This document shows positions 56,541 to 64,000 of a stretch of DNA of 64,000 nt, in pieces (position 1 is the first letter of the stretch; each line of letters starts with the position of its first letter). The position numbers were made by a program, and so were the translations under genes. Origin of the DNA: Dehalococcoidia bacterium (GTDB lineage Bacteria; Chloroflexota; Dehalococcoidia; Plut-88900). A model generated the notes under the pieces. That model made no database searches. It saw nothing but the letters and a program-made list of their open reading frames with translations, and was not told the origin of the DNA. The stretch spans positions 480,001 through 544,000 of the forward strand of contig OZ240219.1 of the NCBI GenBank assembly GCA_965197645.1, in the 5' to 3' direction.

Positions 56541-57030
56541 GTCGTTGCGAGCAAGGGGGGAGCTCGTCCTGTGGGAGGTCGAAGAGAGCGAAGCAATCTG
56601 GGGCGGAGGGGTATACAACTCTGCCGGATGATGACCTAACCTGAGATTGCCACGCCCCGACTTCGTCGGGTCTCGCAATGACGAAGGTACGGATCCAGAC
56701 GTTGCCCTCTCTTCTGTCATGCTATGGGTGCAGGGCCCGCCCTGCCTCCGGTAGGGGGTCTGGGGGATGTGCCCCCAGATACGAAACGTCTCAGGGCGGG
56801 CGGGTGGGCAGAATCCCCTTTGGTGGGGAGGGGTATACAACTCTGCCGGATGATGACCTAACCTGAGATTGCCACGCCCCGACTTTGTCGGGCCTCGCAA
56901 TGACGAAGGTACGGATCCAGACGTTGCCCTCTCTTCTGTCATGTTATGGGTGCAGGGCCCGCCCTGCCTCCGGTAGGGGGTCTGGGGGATGTGCCCCCAG
57001 ATACGAAACGTCTCAGGGCGGGCGGGTGGG
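56541..57030 (+). repeat. composite palindromic repeat with 204-bp tandem duplication (period 222)
   Basis: 56605-56808 vs 56827-57030 nearly identical; contains AGATTGCCACG..CTCGCAATGAC and family A GGGGGATGTGCCCCCA modules. Confidence 0.88.
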
Positions 57031-57078: not shown

Positions 57079-57726
57079 TCATAGCAGCTTCGGCTGGTGG
57101 ACGGACTCGATACCTGAGAAGGGTTCCTCCCCGAGTTCCATTATTCGGTCCATCCGCATCCTGTCCCGGCGAGCAGGCCTGAAGCCCTTGCGCCGCTCCG
57201 TCCGTCGCCTCTGAGCGGACGCCTGGGCCCAACCCTCTAAGAGCAGCAACCTTTCCTTGACGGCCAGCCCGCCGCCAAAGCCGGTGAGAGCGCCATCTCC
57301 GGCAACCACCCGATGACACGGCACGCTGATGGCGAAGGGGTTGGATCCGACCGCCTGGCCGACGGCCCTCGCGCCCCCCGGGCTGCCAACCTCCGCGGCC
57401 ACCTGCCCATAGGTGCGCACCTCGCCCCTCGGTATCTTTTGCAGGACCTCCCAGACCGATCGCTGGAACGGTGTAGCGCCGTCGGTATCGAGGGGCCAGT
57501 CCAAGGATACGTCTTCGCCGCGAGCATAGCCCTCGAAGGAACGAGCCAGCTTGGTAAGGGACTTGTCGTCTTCGGCCAGGTCGCCGAATAGCTCTCGGCT
57601 TTCCTCCTCTACAGTGTTCCGGGTCGCCTCGGGCCCAATCACGGCCTTCAACCCCAGGTTGGACGCCACCAGCCCTATCCAGCCAAGCTCAGTCTCGAAG
57701 ATTATCCGACGGTCAGCGTCCGCCAT
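57079..57726 (-). CDS. ogt: methylated-DNA--protein-cysteine methyltransferase
   Basis: TPFQRSVW, TYGQVA, ARAVG, NP..ISVPCHRVV, GFGGG..KERLLLLE. Confidence 0.93.
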   Translation of the reverse strand: MADADRRIIFETELGWIGLVASNLGLKAVIGPEATRNTVEEESRELFGDLAEDDKSLTKLARSFEGYARGEDVSLDWPLDTDGATPFQRSVWEVLQKIPRGEVRTYGQVAAEVGSPGGARAVGQAVGSNPFAISVPCHRVVAGDGALTGFGGGLAVKERLLLLEGWAQASAQRRRTERRKGFRPARRDRMRMDRIMELGEEPFSGIESVHQPKLL

Positions 57727-57735
57727 AGATCTCTC

Positions 57736-60480
57736 TTAGCTTCCCGGCACCGCTGCCGCCTTCTTGCGCGCCCTTCTTGCCTCGACCACATCCTTGCGGA
57801 GCACCCGAACGGCGCATACCTTGTACTCCGGTATCTTGGAATCGGGGTCGAGGACGGAGTTGGTCAGGAAGTTGGCCGCCGAATCCTTCAGCCTTACGAA
57901 GGGCACGAAGATCTCTCCCTCCCTCACTGCATCCGTGACCAGCGCCCGTCCCTCCAGCTCCCCGCGGCGAGACATGACCACGACCTCGTCGCCGTCGGAC
58001 ACCTGGGAAGATGAAGCGTCGTTCGGGTGAACGGCCACCTGGAGCTCCGGGGCACGGGCCAGCAGTCCTTCCACCCTCCGTGTCAGAGTACCACCGTGCC
58101 AGTGGTACAGTACCCGGCCGGTGTTCAGGATCAACGGGAACTTCCTATCGGGCATCTCGGCGGCGGGCTCTTCCTGGGTTACGGGGTGAAACTTACCCAG
58201 TCCACGAGGGAAACTGTCTCCGTAAAGATAGGGTGTGCCTGGGTGGTCTGGGGCTGGACAAGGCCACTGGATTCCGCCCTCCGCATCCAGCCGTTCGTAG
58301 GAGATGCCGCCGATTATCGGTGTGAGACGGGCCATCTCGTCGAAGATCTCGGAAGGGTGGTCATACTGGAACTGGTCTTGAGAGAGGCCCAGTTTGCGGC
58401 TCACCCGGCGGGCTAGATCCGAAGTGATGCTCCAGTCCGGCCTGCTCTGACCTACCGGCTCGATGGCCTTTCGCACCCGCTGGACCCGACGTTCGCTGTT
58501 GGTGAAGGTGCCGTCCTTCTCGGCGAAACTGGTGGCCGGCAGAACGACGTCCGCGATCTCGGCCGTCTCCTGCATGAAGATGTCCTGGACAACGATGAAG
58601 TCCAGCTTCTCCATGGCCTGGCGAGCATGGGTAAGATTTGGCTCGCCCAGCAGAGGGTTCTCTCCAACTATGTACATCGCCTTGAGGGCCCCTGTGTTGG
58701 CCTCTTCGATCATCTCGGTTGCGACCATCCCTTCCTCACTGGGCAGGGCGCCGCCCCAGGCATCTGAAAACTTGGACAGTGCGTCCGAAGCCAGCACCTG
58801 GTAGCCGGGCAGCGAGTTGGGGACACACCCGGCGTCACCGCACCCCTGGACGTTGTTCTGGCCGCGCAGTGGGGATATGCCGTTTCCCGGCTTGCCCATC
58901 TGACCCGCCAGCAGCGCCAGGTTCAGTACGGCGTAGCAATTGGACGTCCCGTTGGTGTGCTGGGTCAGCCCCATCCCCCAAACGAAGCAGGAGCCGCTGA
59001 AGGGTGGCTGAGCGTAGAGCCTGGCCGCCTCCATCATAAGCTCTTGGGGCACTCCCGTCAGGTGCTCCACGTAGTCCGGGGTGTAGGGCTCCAGCGATTT
59101 TACCCACTCTTCGAAACCTTCTGTCCGGTTGGCGACGAAGTTACGGTCCCACAGGCCCTCGTCCAGGATCACCTTGGCCATTCCGTTGAACAGGGCGATA
59201 TCGGTGCCCGGCCGCTCTCGAAGCCATATGTGAGCGTAGTCGCAGAGCTCGATACGTTTGGGGTTGATGACGATGAGCTTGGCGCCACCCTCGTCCACCG
59301 CCTTTCGAAAGCGGGTGGCGACCACGGGATGGTTGGAGCTGGCATCGGAGCCGGCAATGACAATACAGCCGGCGTTTTCGTAGTCCAGATATGAGTTGCT
59401 GGTGGCGCCGCTGCCCAGCGACGCCAGCATCGCCTCCACCGACGGGGCGTGACACAGACGCGTGCAGTGATCGATGTTGTTGGTGCCCAGCACCAGGCGC
59501 ATGAATTTCTGGACGACGTAGCCGTCCTCGTTGGTGGCCTTGGCCGATGCCAGGGCGGCGGTGACCCCTCGGTATTGGACGAATTTGTCGGCCACCAGGT
59601 CCAGCGCCTCGTCCCAGCTTGCCGGTTGAAGCGAGCCGTCCTTTCTGATCAACGGAGTGGTGAGCCTGTCGGAGTGGTTCACGAACGTGGTGCCGAACCG
59701 TCCCTTGACGCACAACCTGCCCTGGCTCGATTCGTTGTTCGGGTCGTCGTCGGTCCACAGGATCTTGTCTTTGTCGTTGGTGTTCAGGACGATGCCGCAC
59801 CCGACGCCGCAGTAGGGACACACGGTGGAGGTCTTCTTGATGATGTTCTCCGGGGTCAGCGTCGGCACTATGGCGCCGGTGGGGCACGCCGCCACGCAGG
59901 ACCCACAGGAGGTGCAGATCGACTCGGCGATGGGTTGGTCGTCGAAGGCGCCTATGAACGCCTCCTGACCTCTCTCCAGCACGGAGATGGCGCCGATCTC
60001 CTGGAGGGTCTGGCAAGCCTCTGTGCACCGGGCGCACAGGATGCAGTCGTCCATGTTCACTGCAAAGAAGGGGTTGCTTTCGTCCACGTGCTTCCGTTCG
60101 CGGGGCGAGTACGTGGGGGTCTCGATGCCGTGATGCTCCGCCGCCGTGGTCAGCTCCTTGTGCTCCGATAGCCGGTCTCCCGGCTGCTCCGAGGGGAGCA
60201 TACCCAGGGTGAGCTCAAGTACGCCCTGCCGGATGCGGCGAACCTCGTCGCTGTCGGTGTGGACTACCATCCCGTCCTGGACCGGGGTGTGGCACGAGGC
60301 CGGGAACCCCCTGCGTCCCTCGATGCTCACCAGGCACGTCCGGCACGCCCCGATGGCGTTCATCCCCGGGTCCTTGCAGAGCTGTGGGATGTAGGTCCCC
60401 GACCGGTTCACGGCCTGGAGGATGGCGGACCCTTCCTCGGCCTCTACCTGCTGGTCGTTTATGGTGATGGTGACGGTCAT
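57736..60480 (-). CDS. fdhF: formate dehydrogenase alpha subunit (Cys type) with NuoG-like N-terminus
   Basis: [2Fe-2S] GACRTC, two ferredoxin motifs, CPYCGVGC, NNIDHCTRLCH, LRGQNNVQG, PEYK. Confidence 0.92.
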   Translation of the reverse strand: MTVTITINDQQVEAEEGSAILQAVNRSGTYIPQLCKDPGMNAIGACRTCLVSIEGRRGFPASCHTPVQDGMVVHTDSDEVRRIRQGVLELTLGMLPSEQPGDRLSEHKELTTAAEHHGIETPTYSPRERKHVDESNPFFAVNMDDCILCARCTEACQTLQEIGAISVLERGQEAFIGAFDDQPIAESICTSCGSCVAACPTGAIVPTLTPENIIKKTSTVCPYCGVGCGIVLNTNDKDKILWTDDDPNNESSQGRLCVKGRFGTTFVNHSDRLTTPLIRKDGSLQPASWDEALDLVADKFVQYRGVTAALASAKATNEDGYVVQKFMRLVLGTNNIDHCTRLCHAPSVEAMLASLGSGATSNSYLDYENAGCIVIAGSDASSNHPVVATRFRKAVDEGGAKLIVINPKRIELCDYAHIWLRERPGTDIALFNGMAKVILDEGLWDRNFVANRTEGFEEWVKSLEPYTPDYVEHLTGVPQELMMEAARLYAQPPFSGSCFVWGMGLTQHTNGTSNCYAVLNLALLAGQMGKPGNGISPLRGQNNVQGCGDAGCVPNSLPGYQVLASDALSKFSDAWGGALPSEEGMVATEMIEEANTGALKAMYIVGENPLLGEPNLTHARQAMEKLDFIVVQDIFMQETAEIADVVLPATSFAEKDGTFTNSERRVQRVRKAIEPVGQSRPDWSITSDLARRVSRKLGLSQDQFQYDHPSEIFDEMARLTPIIGGISYERLDAEGGIQWPCPAPDHPGTPYLYGDSFPRGLGKFHPVTQEEPAAEMPDRKFPLILNTGRVLYHWHGGTLTRRVEGLLARAPELQVAVHPNDASSSQVSDGDEVVVMSRRGELEGRALVTDAVREGEIFVPFVRLKDSAANFLTNSVLDPDSKIPEYKVCAVRVLRKDVVEARRARKKAAAVPGS

Positions 60481-60589: not shown

Positions 60590-62161
60590 CTACGATCTCG
60601 AGAATGCCTGCCCAAAGTGCTTCAGGCCGCTGCGGATGGGACCGGGCGCCATCTGACCCAGGCCGCACAGCGAGCCGAACTGGACAACGTCGCTGAGATA
60701 GTCCAGATCGTTCAAATCGGAGTCCGTGCCGCGTCCCTCGGAGAGGCCGTCCAGGATGTCCAGCATCCGCTTGGTGCCCTCCCGGCAGGGGGTACACTTG
60801 CTGCACGACTCGTCGGCATTGTAGGCTGCCAGCCGGCGCACGACGTCGAGGATGGATACCGTATCGTCCAGCACGGTGATCCCCCCCGATCCCAGGACCG
60901 CCCCGGACTCGTCCAGCATGCCCGGCCCGATGGGAGTGTCCAGCATGGACGCCGGCAACAGCCCGCCTGAAGGGCCACCGGCGACCACTCCAATGACCTG
61001 GTGTCCATCCGGCGGGCCGCCACCTACACCGTTCACGATCTCTCCGATGGTAGTTCCCATCTCCACCTCCACCAGCCCAGGTCTCCGTACTCGACCGCTC
61101 AGCGATATGAGCTTGGTGCCCTTGGAAGCTTCGGTGCCCATCTCCGGGTAGTCAGAATGATCGGGCTTGAAGATGCCGGGGAGGTTGGCCAGGGTCTCGA
61201 CGTTGTTGATGACGGTGGGCTGGCCCCACAGGCCAGACTCCACGGGAAAGGGAGGCCTGGTCCGGGGCACGTTGCGCTGGCCCTCTATGCTGTTCATCAG
61301 GGCGCTCTCCTCGCCCAGCACGTAGCCCCCCGCACCCCGCCGCACGTCTACGCGGAACCCGAACTCGGTGCCCAGTATCCCATCTCCTATTAGGTCATCA
61401 GCCTCGGCCCGTGCCAGCGCCTCCTCGACCCGCTTGGCGGAGAGGTGCGCCTCTCCATTGATATACAGGTGCGCTGTCTCCGCTCCGATGGCGTAAGCAG
61501 CAATGGCGATCCCTTCCAGCAACCGGTACGGGTCGCCCTCCATGATGTGGCGGTCTTTGTAGATGCCGGGCTCCCCCTCCTCGGCGTTGATGATGAGGTA
61601 GCGAGGACTCCTGCCGGTGTCCCGAGCGCCCCGCCACTTGACGGCTGCCGGGAAGTAGGCGCCACCCCGCCCCCTCAGGTCCAGCTCCGTCACCTTGTCG
61701 ATGACTTGCTCCGGAGACATCGTACTCAGCACGGCGTCCAGGGCCGAGTACCCTCCCAGCGCTACGTACTCGTTCAGATCGGTAGCATCGATGCGGCCCA
61801 CGTTCCGGAGCACCAGCCTGGACTGCCCCTCCCAGCCAGCCTTCCACTCCAAGCCCGGCTCGGGTTGTCCATCCAAGAAGCTCTTAACGAGATTGGGGAG
61901 ATTCTCGGGGCGCGTGTTGGGCAGGCGGTACACGGCGCCGTCTTCGGTCTCGATGATCACCACCGGGGCCTGATAGCACGCCCCGTCGCATCCGGCTACA
62001 ACCAATGACGGTTGCGGATTACCTTTGACTATCTCCTCCCGGAGGTGATCGACGATAGCGGCTGCTCCGACCGATCGACTACAGCCCCCGACCTGCACTA
62101 TCACCCTTGGATAGGAGGGCGCGGCGGCATCGGCCCGACTCTTCAGCTCGGCGTAGTTCAC
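60590..62161 (-). CDS. NuoF/HydB-like NAD(H)-binding flavoprotein subunit
   Basis: N-terminal thioredoxin-like [2Fe-2S] (GCDGAC), LRGRGGAYFP, NAEEGEPG, GEESAL, ESCSKCTPCREG..SLCGLG; GTG start overlaps upstream stop. Confidence 0.9.
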   Translation of the reverse strand: MNYAELKSRADAAAPSYPRVIVQVGGCSRSVGAAAIVDHLREEIVKGNPQPSLVVAGCDGACYQAPVVIIETEDGAVYRLPNTRPENLPNLVKSFLDGQPEPGLEWKAGWEGQSRLVLRNVGRIDATDLNEYVALGGYSALDAVLSTMSPEQVIDKVTELDLRGRGGAYFPAAVKWRGARDTGRSPRYLIINAEEGEPGIYKDRHIMEGDPYRLLEGIAIAAYAIGAETAHLYINGEAHLSAKRVEEALARAEADDLIGDGILGTEFGFRVDVRRGAGGYVLGEESALMNSIEGQRNVPRTRPPFPVESGLWGQPTVINNVETLANLPGIFKPDHSDYPEMGTEASKGTKLISLSGRVRRPGLVEVEMGTTIGEIVNGVGGGPPDGHQVIGVVAGGPSGGLLPASMLDTPIGPGMLDESGAVLGSGGITVLDDTVSILDVVRRLAAYNADESCSKCTPCREGTKRMLDILDGLSEGRGTDSDLNDLDYLSDVVQFGSLCGLGQMAPGPIRSGLKHFGQAFSRS

Positions 62162-62622
62162 CCGCCGGCCCCGATCAGGCCTCGGAGCCTGGCGAGTGCA
62201 ACTTCCCGCGTCATTCTGCCGGCCACGTGCCCATCCCACTCGATTGCCGGGGCCAAGGCGCAGTCGAAGACACACGGCGTCTCCTCGAGGGTGAACTGGC
62301 CATCAGGAGTAGTCTCACCGACTCGGACGCCAAGATCGTGGGCCAGCGCCTCCAGTCCTTCTTCAGCCCCGTTCAGATGGCATTGAAGCCCGGTGCATAC
62401 CTTGACGATGTGCCTGCCCGGTTCGTCAAAGCGGAGCTCGGGATAGGACGAGGCCACACCATGGATCTCGCTTTTCGGTACCCGGAGATACGCTCCTATC
62501 TCCTCCATGGCCCAGCTCGGGAGATATCGGACCTCTTCCTGCACCGCTTGAAGGGCGGGCAACAGGTAGGTCCTACGGCGAGGGAACCTCCCCAGGACCT
62601 CCTTGATCCCTTCCCTATCCAC
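62158..62622 (-). CDS. NuoE/HydC-like [2Fe-2S] subunit
   Basis: LLPALQAVQ..YLP, VCTGLQCHLNG, PCVFDCALAP. Confidence 0.88.
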   Translation of the reverse strand: MDREGIKEVLGRFPRRRTYLLPALQAVQEEVRYLPSWAMEEIGAYLRVPKSEIHGVASSYPELRFDEPGRHIVKVCTGLQCHLNGAEEGLEALAHDLGVRVGETTPDGQFTLEETPCVFDCALAPAIEWDGHVAGRMTREVALARLRGLIGAGG

Positions 62623-64000
62623 CGGCGCCACCTGGAACAGACGATGAAACCGGGTCGGTGTCCAGCAGGTCCAAGATGTCCAGCTGGCGGAGCTTCTCCC
62701 GGGGAATCCTGCCGTCGGCGGTCCAGCCCCGGTCCCGATAGTAGTCGTCCACCATCGCATCCAGCTCGGTCCGGGCGAGCTGACGGCCGTCCTGGGATGC
62801 TTCGAAGATTCGGGGTGGAAGAGTGTCATCGGCCCGTGTCCAGCCCTGGCGAAGGTTGAACGCCTTCCTCAGGTTGTTTATCCGCTCCCCTACCCTTCGA
62901 AGCTGTTCGCCCGAGGTCTCCCAGCCGGTAACCAGCTCGTAGATGTGGGCCGCCTCCGAGTGAAAATCGGTAAAGCAGTTGCGCAGAAACTTGGACAGGA
63001 TCAGAGAGTCCAGGACAGCCGAGAAGTCCTCGCCCTGGGCTGCGAGCGTCCCTCGGTTGAGTTTGGAGTGTCCCCGCCCGTGAAGCGTAGAATGGCTTTG
63101 ATCCTTCAGATCGTAGTCGTAGGCCGATGACCTGTTGTGGCAAGCGCCCCTGGCGCTGACCGCTATGCCCAGGGCCAGGGTCTTGAGAGACCTGGGGTCA
63201 TATCCCGGCATCTCCAGCCCCTTTACGTTCATGGCCCAGTTCTCCGAGCCTTCGCCCATCGTCTCGGCGGCCCGTTTGCTCCCTTCCGCCAGCAGCTCTC
63301 CGATTCCCTCTCTCCTGCCGATGAGCTCGATGACCGATAGCAGGGCCTCGCCGTTGCCGAATCGCAGCTCGATGCCGTTGGTGTCCGAGGTGCTCAGCAG
63401 TCCCCGCTCGAAGGACTCCATGGCCCAGGCGACGGTCCCACCTGTGCTGATGGTGTCCATGCCCAGAGTGTCGCACAGGGCGGTGGCTCTGATTATGGCG
63501 TCCGGGTCGTCGATGCCACAGAGAGGGCCGAGGGCGAACAGGCTCTCATACTCCACCCGGTTCTTGACCTTGGTCCCGTTCTTGTCCCTGGCGCCGAAGA
63601 CGTGCTCCCAGTCCCGGAGGGCGCCGTTTCCTTCTCCGCCATCGACGAGGCGTTTCTGGAGGCTGTGGCCGCTGATGGAGGCCTCTCCCTCGAAGCTGGA
63701 GCGCTGAAAGTTGTACGAGGGCAGGGCCAAAACCTCGTTCAGGATGGAAAGGTTGGCCACCGTCCCCGGCCCACGATACTTGGCCGTGGGGAGACCCCTA
63801 CTCAGATCCTCTATGCGCTCGGCGACCTCAGCCAGCTCATCGGGGTGAGCAACGGTGGTGCTCTCGGTGCCCTTGAGGGCGATGGCCTTGAGGTTCTTGG
63901 ACCCCATCACAGCCCCGGCGCCGGTCCTGCCTGCCTGGCGTCCGCCGCTGGTAATGCAAGCGAACCGCACGAGGGCCTCACCGGCCGGGCCTATAGAGAT
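62615..64000 (-). CDS. aldehyde:ferredoxin oxidoreductase (AOR/WOR) family protein, 5' end outside window
   Basis: GRTGAGAVMGSKNLKAI, EYESL, CDTLGMDTIS, VKGLEMPGYDPR, RGACH, DDTLPPR, DYYRDRGW. Confidence 0.9.
   Translation of the reverse strand: MSIGPAGEALVRFACITSGGRQAGRTGAGAVMGSKNLKAIALKGTESTTVAHPDELAEVAERIEDLSRGLPTAKYRGPGTVANLSILNEVLALPSYNFQRSSFEGEASISGHSLQKRLVDGGEGNGALRDWEHVFGARDKNGTKVKNRVEYESLFALGPLCGIDDPDAIIRATALCDTLGMDTISTGGTVAWAMESFERGLLSTSDTNGIELRFGNGEALLSVIELIGRREGIGELLAEGSKRAAETMGEGSENWAMNVKGLEMPGYDPRSLKTLALGIAVSARGACHNRSSAYDYDLKDQSHSTLHGRGHSKLNRGTLAAQGEDFSAVLDSLILSKFLRNCFTDFHSEAAHIYELVTGWETSGEQLRRVGERINNLRKAFNLRQGWTRADDTLPPRIFEASQDGRQLARTELDAMVDDYYRDRGWTADGRIPREKLRQLDILDLLDTDPVSSSVPGGAGG

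Follow-up and report, generated by a model that had tools for sequence, protein, structure and literature searches.

The 64,000-nucleotide stretch of DNA analyzed here (the window, G000:C1:480001-544000) comes from a Dehalococcoidia genome, G000, which is 94% complete and consists of one contig. At its end lies a gene for a protein of the AOR/WOR family, followed on the minus strand by genes of a nicotinamide adenine dinucleotide (NAD)-linked formate dehydrogenase (FDH). In the AOR of Pyrococcus, a [4Fe-4S] cluster serves as the exit route for electrons. Here we describe the loss of all four cysteines that would hold this cluster in the window protein, the extent of that loss among its relatives, and what such a cluster-less protein may do.

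Within the window the AOR gene occupies 62615..64000 on the minus strand, which holds the C-terminal 461 codons and the stop; the frame is open to the window edge, and the first 160 codons lie beyond it, up to window-equivalent position 64480. The gene is complete in the genome (G000:C1:542615-544480, minus strand), with a TTG start and 621 amino acids beginning MYGYHG, resembling the N-terminus of P. furiosus AOR. The window part matches AFOR_C (PF01314, E 4.4e-106) and the end of AFOR_N (PF02730), and both domains and the three-domain fold of the family are present. Searched as a whole, the protein hits nine solved AOR/WOR chains, with 1AOR at the top (HMMER, E 2.2e-99, residues 1-604). The fold is confirmed by an AlphaFold model with a predicted local distance difference test (pLDDT) score of 77 and a predicted template modeling (pTM) score of 0.82, and Foldseek gives TM scores of 0.81-0.83 to five solved AORs, including 9mqx_D, 1aor_A and 8c0z_A.

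The family feature of one [4Fe-4S] cluster, bound through CxxCxxxC and a fourth cysteine by the pterin, is absent. Residue numbers were mapped via the HMMER alignment to 1AOR, in which the query segment gegngalrdwehvfgar lies under KPCYACPIGCGR and DSLILSKF under DSAGLCLF; all four cluster-ligand positions of P. furiosus AOR are replaced, by G284, A287, W291 and S496. An initial annotation, made from the sequence alone, had reported that all four cysteines are missing, and both the alignment and the DNA bear this out; the four-cysteine ligation of the Pyrococcus cluster, which it took as established, agrees with the alignment. The former CxxCxxxC loop now reads E-G-N-G-A-L-R-D-W-E-H (E283 to H293), as first reported, but lies at 63602..63634 on the minus strand, one base away from the 63603-63635 originally given. 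Its three ligand positions fall at 63631-63629 (G284), 63622-63620 (A287) and 63610-63608 (W291). The fourth ligand position (P. furiosus Cys494) holds Ser496, encoded by TCC at 62993..62995 on the minus strand in accordance with the first reading, and is preceded by Leu where the cysteine-bearing sister clade described below has Trp.

The pterin motifs named in the same annotation can all be read in the translation and the DNA, on the minus strand. They are the GSKNLKA loop (residues 193-199, 63884..63904), a conserved cofactor-binding segment within residues 181-210, which are conserved as in the sister clade; E310-Y311-E312 (63545..63553), where E312 aligns with P. furiosus Glu313; the first pterin-binding motif D337-S345, D-T-L-G-M-D-T-I-S (63446..63472), whose DTIS part lies at 63457-63446; and R444-G-A-C-H448 (63137..63151), where H448 aligns with P. 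furiosus His448. Both aspartate motifs and the phosphate/Mg loops of a bis-pyranopterin site are thus in place, with Ser at the Cys/Asp position of the second motif.

The loss is not peculiar to this genome. A word-indexed search found 7,721 relatives at E <= 1e-20, and the best 120 were aligned with the query (121 rows). The ligands are absent from 53 of these 121 proteins, which have a conserved S-R-[DE]-W-E-H and DSL[VI]LSKF instead, while the remaining 68 carry C-A-N-C-T-I-G-C-E and DSLIWCKF. Recurring together in 53 of the 121 nearest proteins, the four replacements exceed chance. In a maximum-likelihood (ML) tree of 68 rows, those without the ligands fall together in a single group of 29 (Shimodaira-Hasegawa-like approximate likelihood ratio test, SH-aLRT, 99) beside a cysteine-bearing Dehalococcoidia group (26 rows, SH-aLRT 98), the sister clade. 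The ligand-less clade is deep, with internal paths of more than 0.7 changes per site.

All 11 other genomes of the window's GTDB family contain the gene at E <= 1e-100, in ten complete copies and one cut by a contig end, and every copy is ligand-less; a ligand-less AOR also occurs in one genome of a second family (G042). Among 401 genomes sampled from the class, the DNA pattern for DS-L-[IV]-L-S-K-F turned up in 11, each of them a member of the window's family, and G042 escapes this pattern because it reads DSMILSKF. A scan of a genome collection found the cluster-less motif pair in none of the 80 loci kept, a count that reflects the loci kept rather than absence. The AOR frame is unbroken in each of the 12 genomes. 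Two other studies yielded contigs that cover the operon at about 97% identity (177 of 5,743 and 232 of 6,524 letters differ), and the AOR gene is not an assembly artefact. A metatranscriptomic library labeled as sponge metagenome holds three contigs that match parts of fdsB, of the AOR gene (window 62958-63143) and of mobA without a difference; stretches that these contigs leave uncovered carry no weight.

PMC13328260, from which our list of catalytic residues is taken, gives PfAOR Thr243, Glu313, Tyr427 and His448 as the second-shell catalytic residues of aldehyde-oxidizing members. The second-shell residues are present in the ligand-less clade: T240, E312 and H448 are kept in 53 of 53 proteins, as are D337, D342, D491, R181 and R185, and position 427 is Y in 43 of them, F in nine and W in one. 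K76, which corresponds to P. furiosus Arg76, is kept in 52 of the 53. Across the ligand-less and sister clades together, 178 positions are at least 97% conserved, and these include all pterin and catalytic residues.

At the old cluster site the clade has its own pattern. No member has a cysteine at any of the four ligand positions; C284 has become G or A, C287 has become M, V or A, C291 is W and C496 is S in all 53 (the sister clade has C at 496 in 68/68). Neighboring positions have changed as well, I289 to R (51/53) and G290 to E or D (52/53), and position 495 is L in 53/53 ligand-less proteins versus W in 68/68 of the sister clade. The site looks like a remodeled one with its cavity filled, not like the product of drift. 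A census of cysteines found five that are conserved in the ligand-less clade (C81, C175, C321, C336 and C447) and no replacement four-cysteine site. C336 and C447 are common to both clades, and C175 and C321 are frequent among cluster-bearing representatives. Relative to the sister clade, C81 and C175 are each at 98% versus 0% and C321 at 100% versus 37%; C81 was found in no other representative examined. On the minus strand, C175 lies at window 63956-63958, C321 at 63518-63520 and C81 beyond the window at window-equivalent 64238-64240.

The AOR gene is under purifying selection in the clade. In all 36 pairs of nine AOR genes from genus g4, the Nei-Gojobori ratio of nonsynonymous to synonymous change (dN/dS) lies between 0.090 and 0.188. 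Mean pairwise identities of segments, compared between nine deep ligand-less pairs and 15 sister pairs, show where constraint has changed: identity is 30 versus 62% in residues 271-300, the old cluster loop, 29 versus 75% in residues 451-480 (63041..63130, minus strand) and 58 versus 84% in residues 61-90, which hold K76, as against 78 versus 73% in residues 181-210 and 59-75 versus 53-77% in residues 301-420. One relative's contig has in-frame indels within residues 451-480. Constraint is relaxed about two-fold, only near the former cluster loop and in neighboring segments, and the pterin and active-site core is spared. Judged from their place in the sequence, the relaxed segments would correspond to a partner-facing surface around the cluster. 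This is not decay, and the clade maintains the cluster-less AOR under selection. The initial annotation had proposed a selected cluster-less variant, and the monophyly of the clade, the low dN/dS, the conserved replacement motif and the pterin and catalytic residues intact in 53/53 all speak for it. The two outcomes that it named as contrary did not appear: the census reveals no alternative cysteines to supply the cluster, and the close orthologues share the loss rather than keeping the cysteines beside a decaying copy.

The cluster has also been lost elsewhere in the subfamily. Searching 1.84 billion representatives with a profile brought up 15,996 relatives, of which the best 150 were aligned with the query (P0001) and a sister-clade protein (P0013), giving 152 rows. 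Twelve of these do not read C-C-C-C at the four ligand positions: two belong to the ligand-less clade (P0001 and P0018), six have one ligand changed, and four (P0149, P0126, P0131 and P0224) lack three or four ligands. A FastTree phylogeny places the last four outside the Dehalococcoidia ligand-less clade, and P0149 has two relatives (P0374 and P0375, 58-59% identity) in which the ligands are likewise missing; these three make up a second, independent ligand-less clade whose catalytic residues are retained. This distribution, with four ligand-poor rows outside the clade and kin for one of them, indicates that cluster loss has happened more than once in the FDH-linked AOR subfamily, separately in at least two lineages besides the Dehalococcoidia clade. 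P0126, in which the whole loop is deleted, may be a one-off; its next matches are at most 48% identical, and in its alignment of 106 rows 104 keep all four cysteines, the exceptions being P0126 and the query. The gene for P0374 (L132:1488-3272) lies 80 nucleotides downstream of a gene at 23-1408 that, read from its sequence alone, we take to be class-III aminotransferase-like, a type of enzyme that produces aldehydes. The contig ends 43 nucleotides past the AOR stop, and an FDH neighbor is possible beyond it.

The operon that holds the window gene begins outside the window with mobA (G000:C1:544543-545157, minus strand), which has a promoter-like site about 30 nucleotides upstream and is followed by the AOR gene. 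Next comes fdsG (62158..62622, minus strand), which encodes a NuoE-like protein of 154 amino acids. Its GTG start (62622-62620) and the TAG stop of the AOR gene (62617-62615) lie within GTGGATAG, an overlap of 8 nucleotides; the overlap of the AOR stop with a NuoE-like start had been noted at the outset, and FdsG proteins of relatives begin at the same residue. The four [2Fe-2S] cysteines of FdsG (Cys76, 81, 117 and 121) are kept and invariant. The fdsB gene (60590..62161, minus strand; NuoF-like, 523 amino acids) starts with GTG and overlaps the fdsG stop as GTGA, and fdsA (57736..60480, minus strand, ATG at 60480) encodes an FDH alpha subunit of 914 amino acids with a NuoG-like N-terminus. 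FdsA scores 762 bits against TIGR01591 (cut-off 666), and its closest solved chains are 7e5z_A, a tungsten formate dehydrogenase (E 3.5e-211), and 6tg9_A, R. capsulatus FdsA (E 1.6e-189). The assignment of the operon to an NAD-linked FDH in the initial annotation holds, since an alpha subunit and NuoE-like and NuoF-like subunits with cluster and flavin mononucleotide (FMN) domains, as in FdsGBA-type enzymes, lie downstream of the AOR gene.

The order mobA-AOR-fdsG-fdsB-fdsA is found in 12/12 complete ligand-less genomic copies and in six sister loci that keep the cysteines (L003, L004, L005, L008, L009 and L116); other sister loci show mobA-AOR alone (L007, L012 and the short contig L010). This common order indicates that the mobA-AOR-fds arrangement is ancestral and that the cluster was lost inside it. 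Cysteine-bearing relatives from metagenomes (L136-L207) are linked to FDH in another order, mobA-AOR-fdsA-fdsG-fdsB, and among 80 metagenome loci, many of them short, an FdsA-like neighbor was found in 51 and a MobA-like one in 46. The operon contains no polyferredoxin or flavin adenine dinucleotide (FAD) subunit. We considered and rejected the co-loss of a ferredoxin or small-subunit gene from between AOR and fdsG, as sister-clade loci have no conserved gene there. No molybdenum cofactor (Moco) riboswitch or other Rfam family was found in the operon, the sole match being a microRNA family at chance level (E 0.09). A complex prediction for FdsG and AOR gave a score of 0.00, which yields no verdict and counts neither way on binding.

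In several relatives from genus g4, foreign genes stand between fdsB and fdsA and AOR-fdsG-fdsB stay contiguous. One locus has inserted open reading frames of 334 and 247 amino acids on the operon strand (L107:6333-8152), which from a reading of the sequence alone we take to be methyltransferase-like and restriction-enzyme-like, and another has an inserted gene of 419 amino acids on the opposite strand (L114:7948-9207). After fdsA in the window comes an Ogt/MGMT-like gene (57079-57726, minus strand; TIGR00589, 110 bits), which was not found at the corresponding place in the relatives' loci. The gap downstream of it holds two direct repeats of 210 nucleotides, 98% identical (56599-56808 and 56821-57030). 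By blastn the genome contains 19 matches to the repeat, the majority of which have a core of about 45 nucleotides in common, and it looks like a small dispersed intergenic repeat.

Elsewhere in G000 there are two further AFOR_C genes, both with a normal CxxCxxxC...C. They belong to a second AOR system with an AorABC-like layout (G000:C1:1601739-1608107), consisting of a polyferredoxin of 164 amino acids, AORs of 613 and 612 amino acids and an FAD oxidoreductase of 462 amino acids; the tandem AORs are 59% identical to each other and 35-38% identical to the cluster-less AOR. Given these two paralogues with normal cluster motifs, the organism presumably makes the bis-pterin AOR cofactor. TupA-like and TupB-like genes (G000:C1:969480-972290, locus L212) have best NCBIfam hits that fall short of the equivalog cut-offs and are neighbors of a molybdopterin-biosynthesis-like gene, and ModA (TIGR01256) has no match in G000. 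The accessory sulfurtransferase FdhD/NarQ (PF02634, FdhD/FdsC-type) was not found in six genomes that all encode an FdsGBA-type FDH (G000, G002, G005, G009, G042 and G044); the control of this search was positive in 8 of 14 known genomes. We dropped this absence as a hint of a chaperone role, FdhD being missing from cluster-less and sister genomes alike. G000 encodes a heme-copper oxidase; COX1 occurs in G000, G002 and G009 and in the sister-clade genome G044, and was not found in G042 (77% complete) or G049.

What the protein does can be approached from where constraint was kept and where it was released. With unchanged constraint on the pocket and released cluster segments, the simplest reading would be that the metal-pterin site is used and that no electrons are handed over to a protein. 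We tentatively favor, at a little short of an even chance, a pterin-only enzyme that would transfer no electrons to a protein partner through an internal cluster. It would be a working AOR/WOR catalytic subunit, with its bis-pyranopterin metal cofactor (probably tungsten) bound and its aldehyde-oxidizing pocket kept, and it would have given up the [4Fe-4S] cluster along with the segments used for electron hand-over. The metal center would be re-oxidized (or re-reduced) at the active site itself, possible routes being a small two-electron acceptor such as O2, an oxo-transfer co-substrate or a redox-neutral reaction, whereas a ferredoxin or iron-sulfur wire would be excluded. Co-transcribed and translationally coupled with mobA and the NAD-linked FdsGBA, as its position suggests, the protein would draw on the same supply of cofactor and probably act in the same pathway, from an aldehyde to an acid or formate and on to CO2. 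The loss of all four ligands, its conservation across the clade, purifying selection, the intact pterin and catalytic pocket, the local relaxation and the conserved synteny are observed, whereas binding of the cofactor, catalysis and the nature of the acceptor are points that we infer. Besides these observations, we count in favor of a pterin-only enzyme the heme-copper oxidase, the TupA/TupB-like transporter with no ModA match, the identical contigs from the RNA library and the second ligand-less clade, with its catalytic residues and one member just downstream of the aminotransferase-like gene.

Several points weigh against a pterin-only enzyme. No acceptor emerged from the analysis, and PMC12096430 and PMC13328260, as consulted here, characterize no cluster-free member of the family. 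Within the ligand-less clade no other operon protein evolves as fast or is as poorly conserved as the AOR, which ranks among the best conserved ones in the sister clade; the median ratio of AOR to FdsA divergence is 1.81 for 36 pairs whose FdsA identity is below 90%, versus 1.13 in the sister clade (15 pairs), and the ratio is 2.2-3.5 in closer ligand-less pairs, figures that are descriptive and not tests, as the pairs share ancestry. A demotion to a non-catalytic role would also yield such fast evolution. The RNA-library contigs hint at transcription of the operon and do not prove it, and the AlphaFold model has low confidence in the cofactor loops. An aerobic lifestyle fails as a discriminator of the clade, as COX1 is also present in the sister-clade genome G044.

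Among the alternatives, the initial annotation had itself suggested a tungstopterin carrier or storage protein beside an enzyme with a different acceptor. Such a carrier, store or maturation factor would bind the bis-pterin W/Mo cofactor made with MobA, without catalysis, and supply FDH or the two AOR paralogues. The placement of AOR between mobA and fdsGBA in 12/12 copies, a constraint relaxed about two-fold relative to FdsA, the retained pterin-binding residues and the failure to find an FdhD/FdsC-type maturation protein in G000 or five relatives speak for it. A store, however, would not need the invariant E312, H448 and T240 or a 301-420 core conserved as in the sister clade, and in the 1AOR structure the cofactor is deeply buried in the fold, which is awkward for hand-over. 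The cluster-bearing sister clade, moreover, stands at the same operon position and is also without FdhD; the position therefore implies no chaperone. We regard a carrier as unlikely, if the strongest of the alternatives, and the evidence leans instead toward an enzyme with a different acceptor, because the catalytic pocket is as conserved as in the sister clade and the relaxation is confined to cluster-related segments. If the protein were wired into FDH, docking on FdsG, FdsB or FdsA so that electrons pass from the pterin to a partner Fe-S cluster and on to FMN and NAD+, its own cluster would be redundant. The translational coupling seen in the AOR/fdsG overlap GTGGATAG and the GTGA overlap of fdsG and fdsB would suit this, as would the linkage of AOR to FDH, which is conserved throughout Dehalococcoidia and recurs in 51 of 80 metagenome loci with related AORs, and the cluster motifs kept in FdsG, FdsB and FdsA. 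Yet the segments by the lost ligands are free to vary, where a docking and electron-transfer surface should do the opposite; no extra domains in the three subunits and no polyferredoxin adaptor in the operon were found, and unrelated genes separate fdsB from fdsA in some relatives. We consider a wired subunit rather improbable.

Two further explanations appear considerably less probable. New ligands, such as Cys81 with Cys175 or an E/D290-E292-H293 triad, might hold another metal site in place of the cluster. The enrichment of Cys81, Cys175 and C321 over the sister clade and the conservation of E292 and H293 beside W291 are consistent with this, but C175, C321, C336 and C447 also occur in many four-ligand cluster-bearing AORs, C81 and C175 are missing from the other ligand-less lineages, and the conserved R289 beside E/D290 resembles a salt-bridge plug; a substitute metal site thus seems quite improbable. 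A relic, that is, a slowly decaying pseudo-enzyme kept by operon inertia or as a scaffold, would explain why AOR is the least conserved operon protein in the clade and why isolated loop-deleted variants without close kin, such as P0126, exist elsewhere. Against it stand the intact frames in all 12 genomes, dN/dS of 0.09-0.19, the depth of the clade (paths above 0.7 changes per site) and replacement residues that are invariant (W291 and S496, 53/53), and we think it very improbable.

Returning to a pterin-only enzyme, we propose with still more reserve a wider claim: that the clade may be the first pterin-only branch of the AOR/WOR family, a W/Mo bis-pterin aldehyde-converting enzyme of aerobic Dehalococcoidia that needs no iron-sulfur relay for turnover and uses O2 or a two-electron oxo-acceptor at the metal site, with at least three independent losses of the cluster in the subfamily. 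Independent losses in the FDH-linked subfamily would suggest that the cluster is dispensable for the enzyme's role beside FdsGBA. A conserved and selected clade without the cluster shows that the AOR fold can be used in another way, and it offers a directly testable case of whether a bis-pterin tungsten site that has no one-electron relay can turn over, and which acceptor would serve it. An AOR that is free of the cluster and possibly oxygen-tolerant would be of interest for acid reduction and aldehyde conversion, and these proteins sharpen the question of why AOR genes join NAD-linked FDH operons in several phyla.

The clade departs from what is described for the family. PMC12096430 states that all tungsten enzymes have at least one Fe4S4 cluster near the metal-pterin site, and PMC13328260 that the ligands of cluster and pterin show very little variation within the family; the latter, a 2026 classification of more than 4,000 WORs, still defines its simplest class by the cluster. 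Since the family is said always to carry the cluster, which is lost here, the cluster-less AOR must work in a way undescribed for it. A literature search found no description of a cluster-less AOR or WOR; Supplementary Dataset 1 of PMC13328260, which lay outside that search, may list the clade. The same paper describes Class I WORs as a lone WorL with a [4Fe-4S] cluster, linked to ferredoxin and with no WorS, WorN or WorABC neighbor. The cluster-less AOR fits that class in having no polyferredoxin or FAD subunit in its operon, but overall does not belong to it, as it lacks the cluster and has NuoE/NuoF-like genes adjacent.

Homology to solved structures is full-length (P. furiosus 1AOR, 9MQX_D, 9G7J, 8C0Z_A and 1B25; E 2.2e-99 to 1.1e-73), and the 1AOR equivalents of Thr243, Glu313, Tyr427 and His448 are present together with the pterin-binding aspartates. 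According to PMC12096430 and PMC13328260, all solved AORs and WORs carry the [4Fe-4S] cluster beside the pterin; the cluster-less AOR has no ligand cysteines. AorABC of Aromatoleum aromaticum (8C0Z) and the AorA-AorB-AorB-AorC-like operon of G000 are of the same family, bacterial and tied to NAD-linked electron modules. These AorABC-like paralogues keep CxxCxxxC...C, and their electrons leave through a polyferredoxin and an FAD subunit, two components that the cluster-less AOR does not have. In other pterin enzyme families, Rhodobacter dimethyl sulfoxide (DMSO) reductase, TorA and BisC do without their family's FS0 cluster, and plant sulfite oxidase has no heme domain and uses O2; such lineages have dispensed with an internal one-electron relay and exchange electrons at the metal site or close to it. 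They offer an analogy of mechanism only, as they belong to other folds and families and their acceptors are known. The closest comparison is with the sister clade of SAR202-type AORs in Dehalococcoidia, which are 52-56% identical to the cluster-less AOR and hold the same operon position. The sister clade keeps C-A-N-C-T-I-G-C and DSLIWCKF in 68/68 and its AOR evolves as slowly as FdsA (ratio 1.13), whereas the cluster-less clade has neither motif and a ratio of 1.81.

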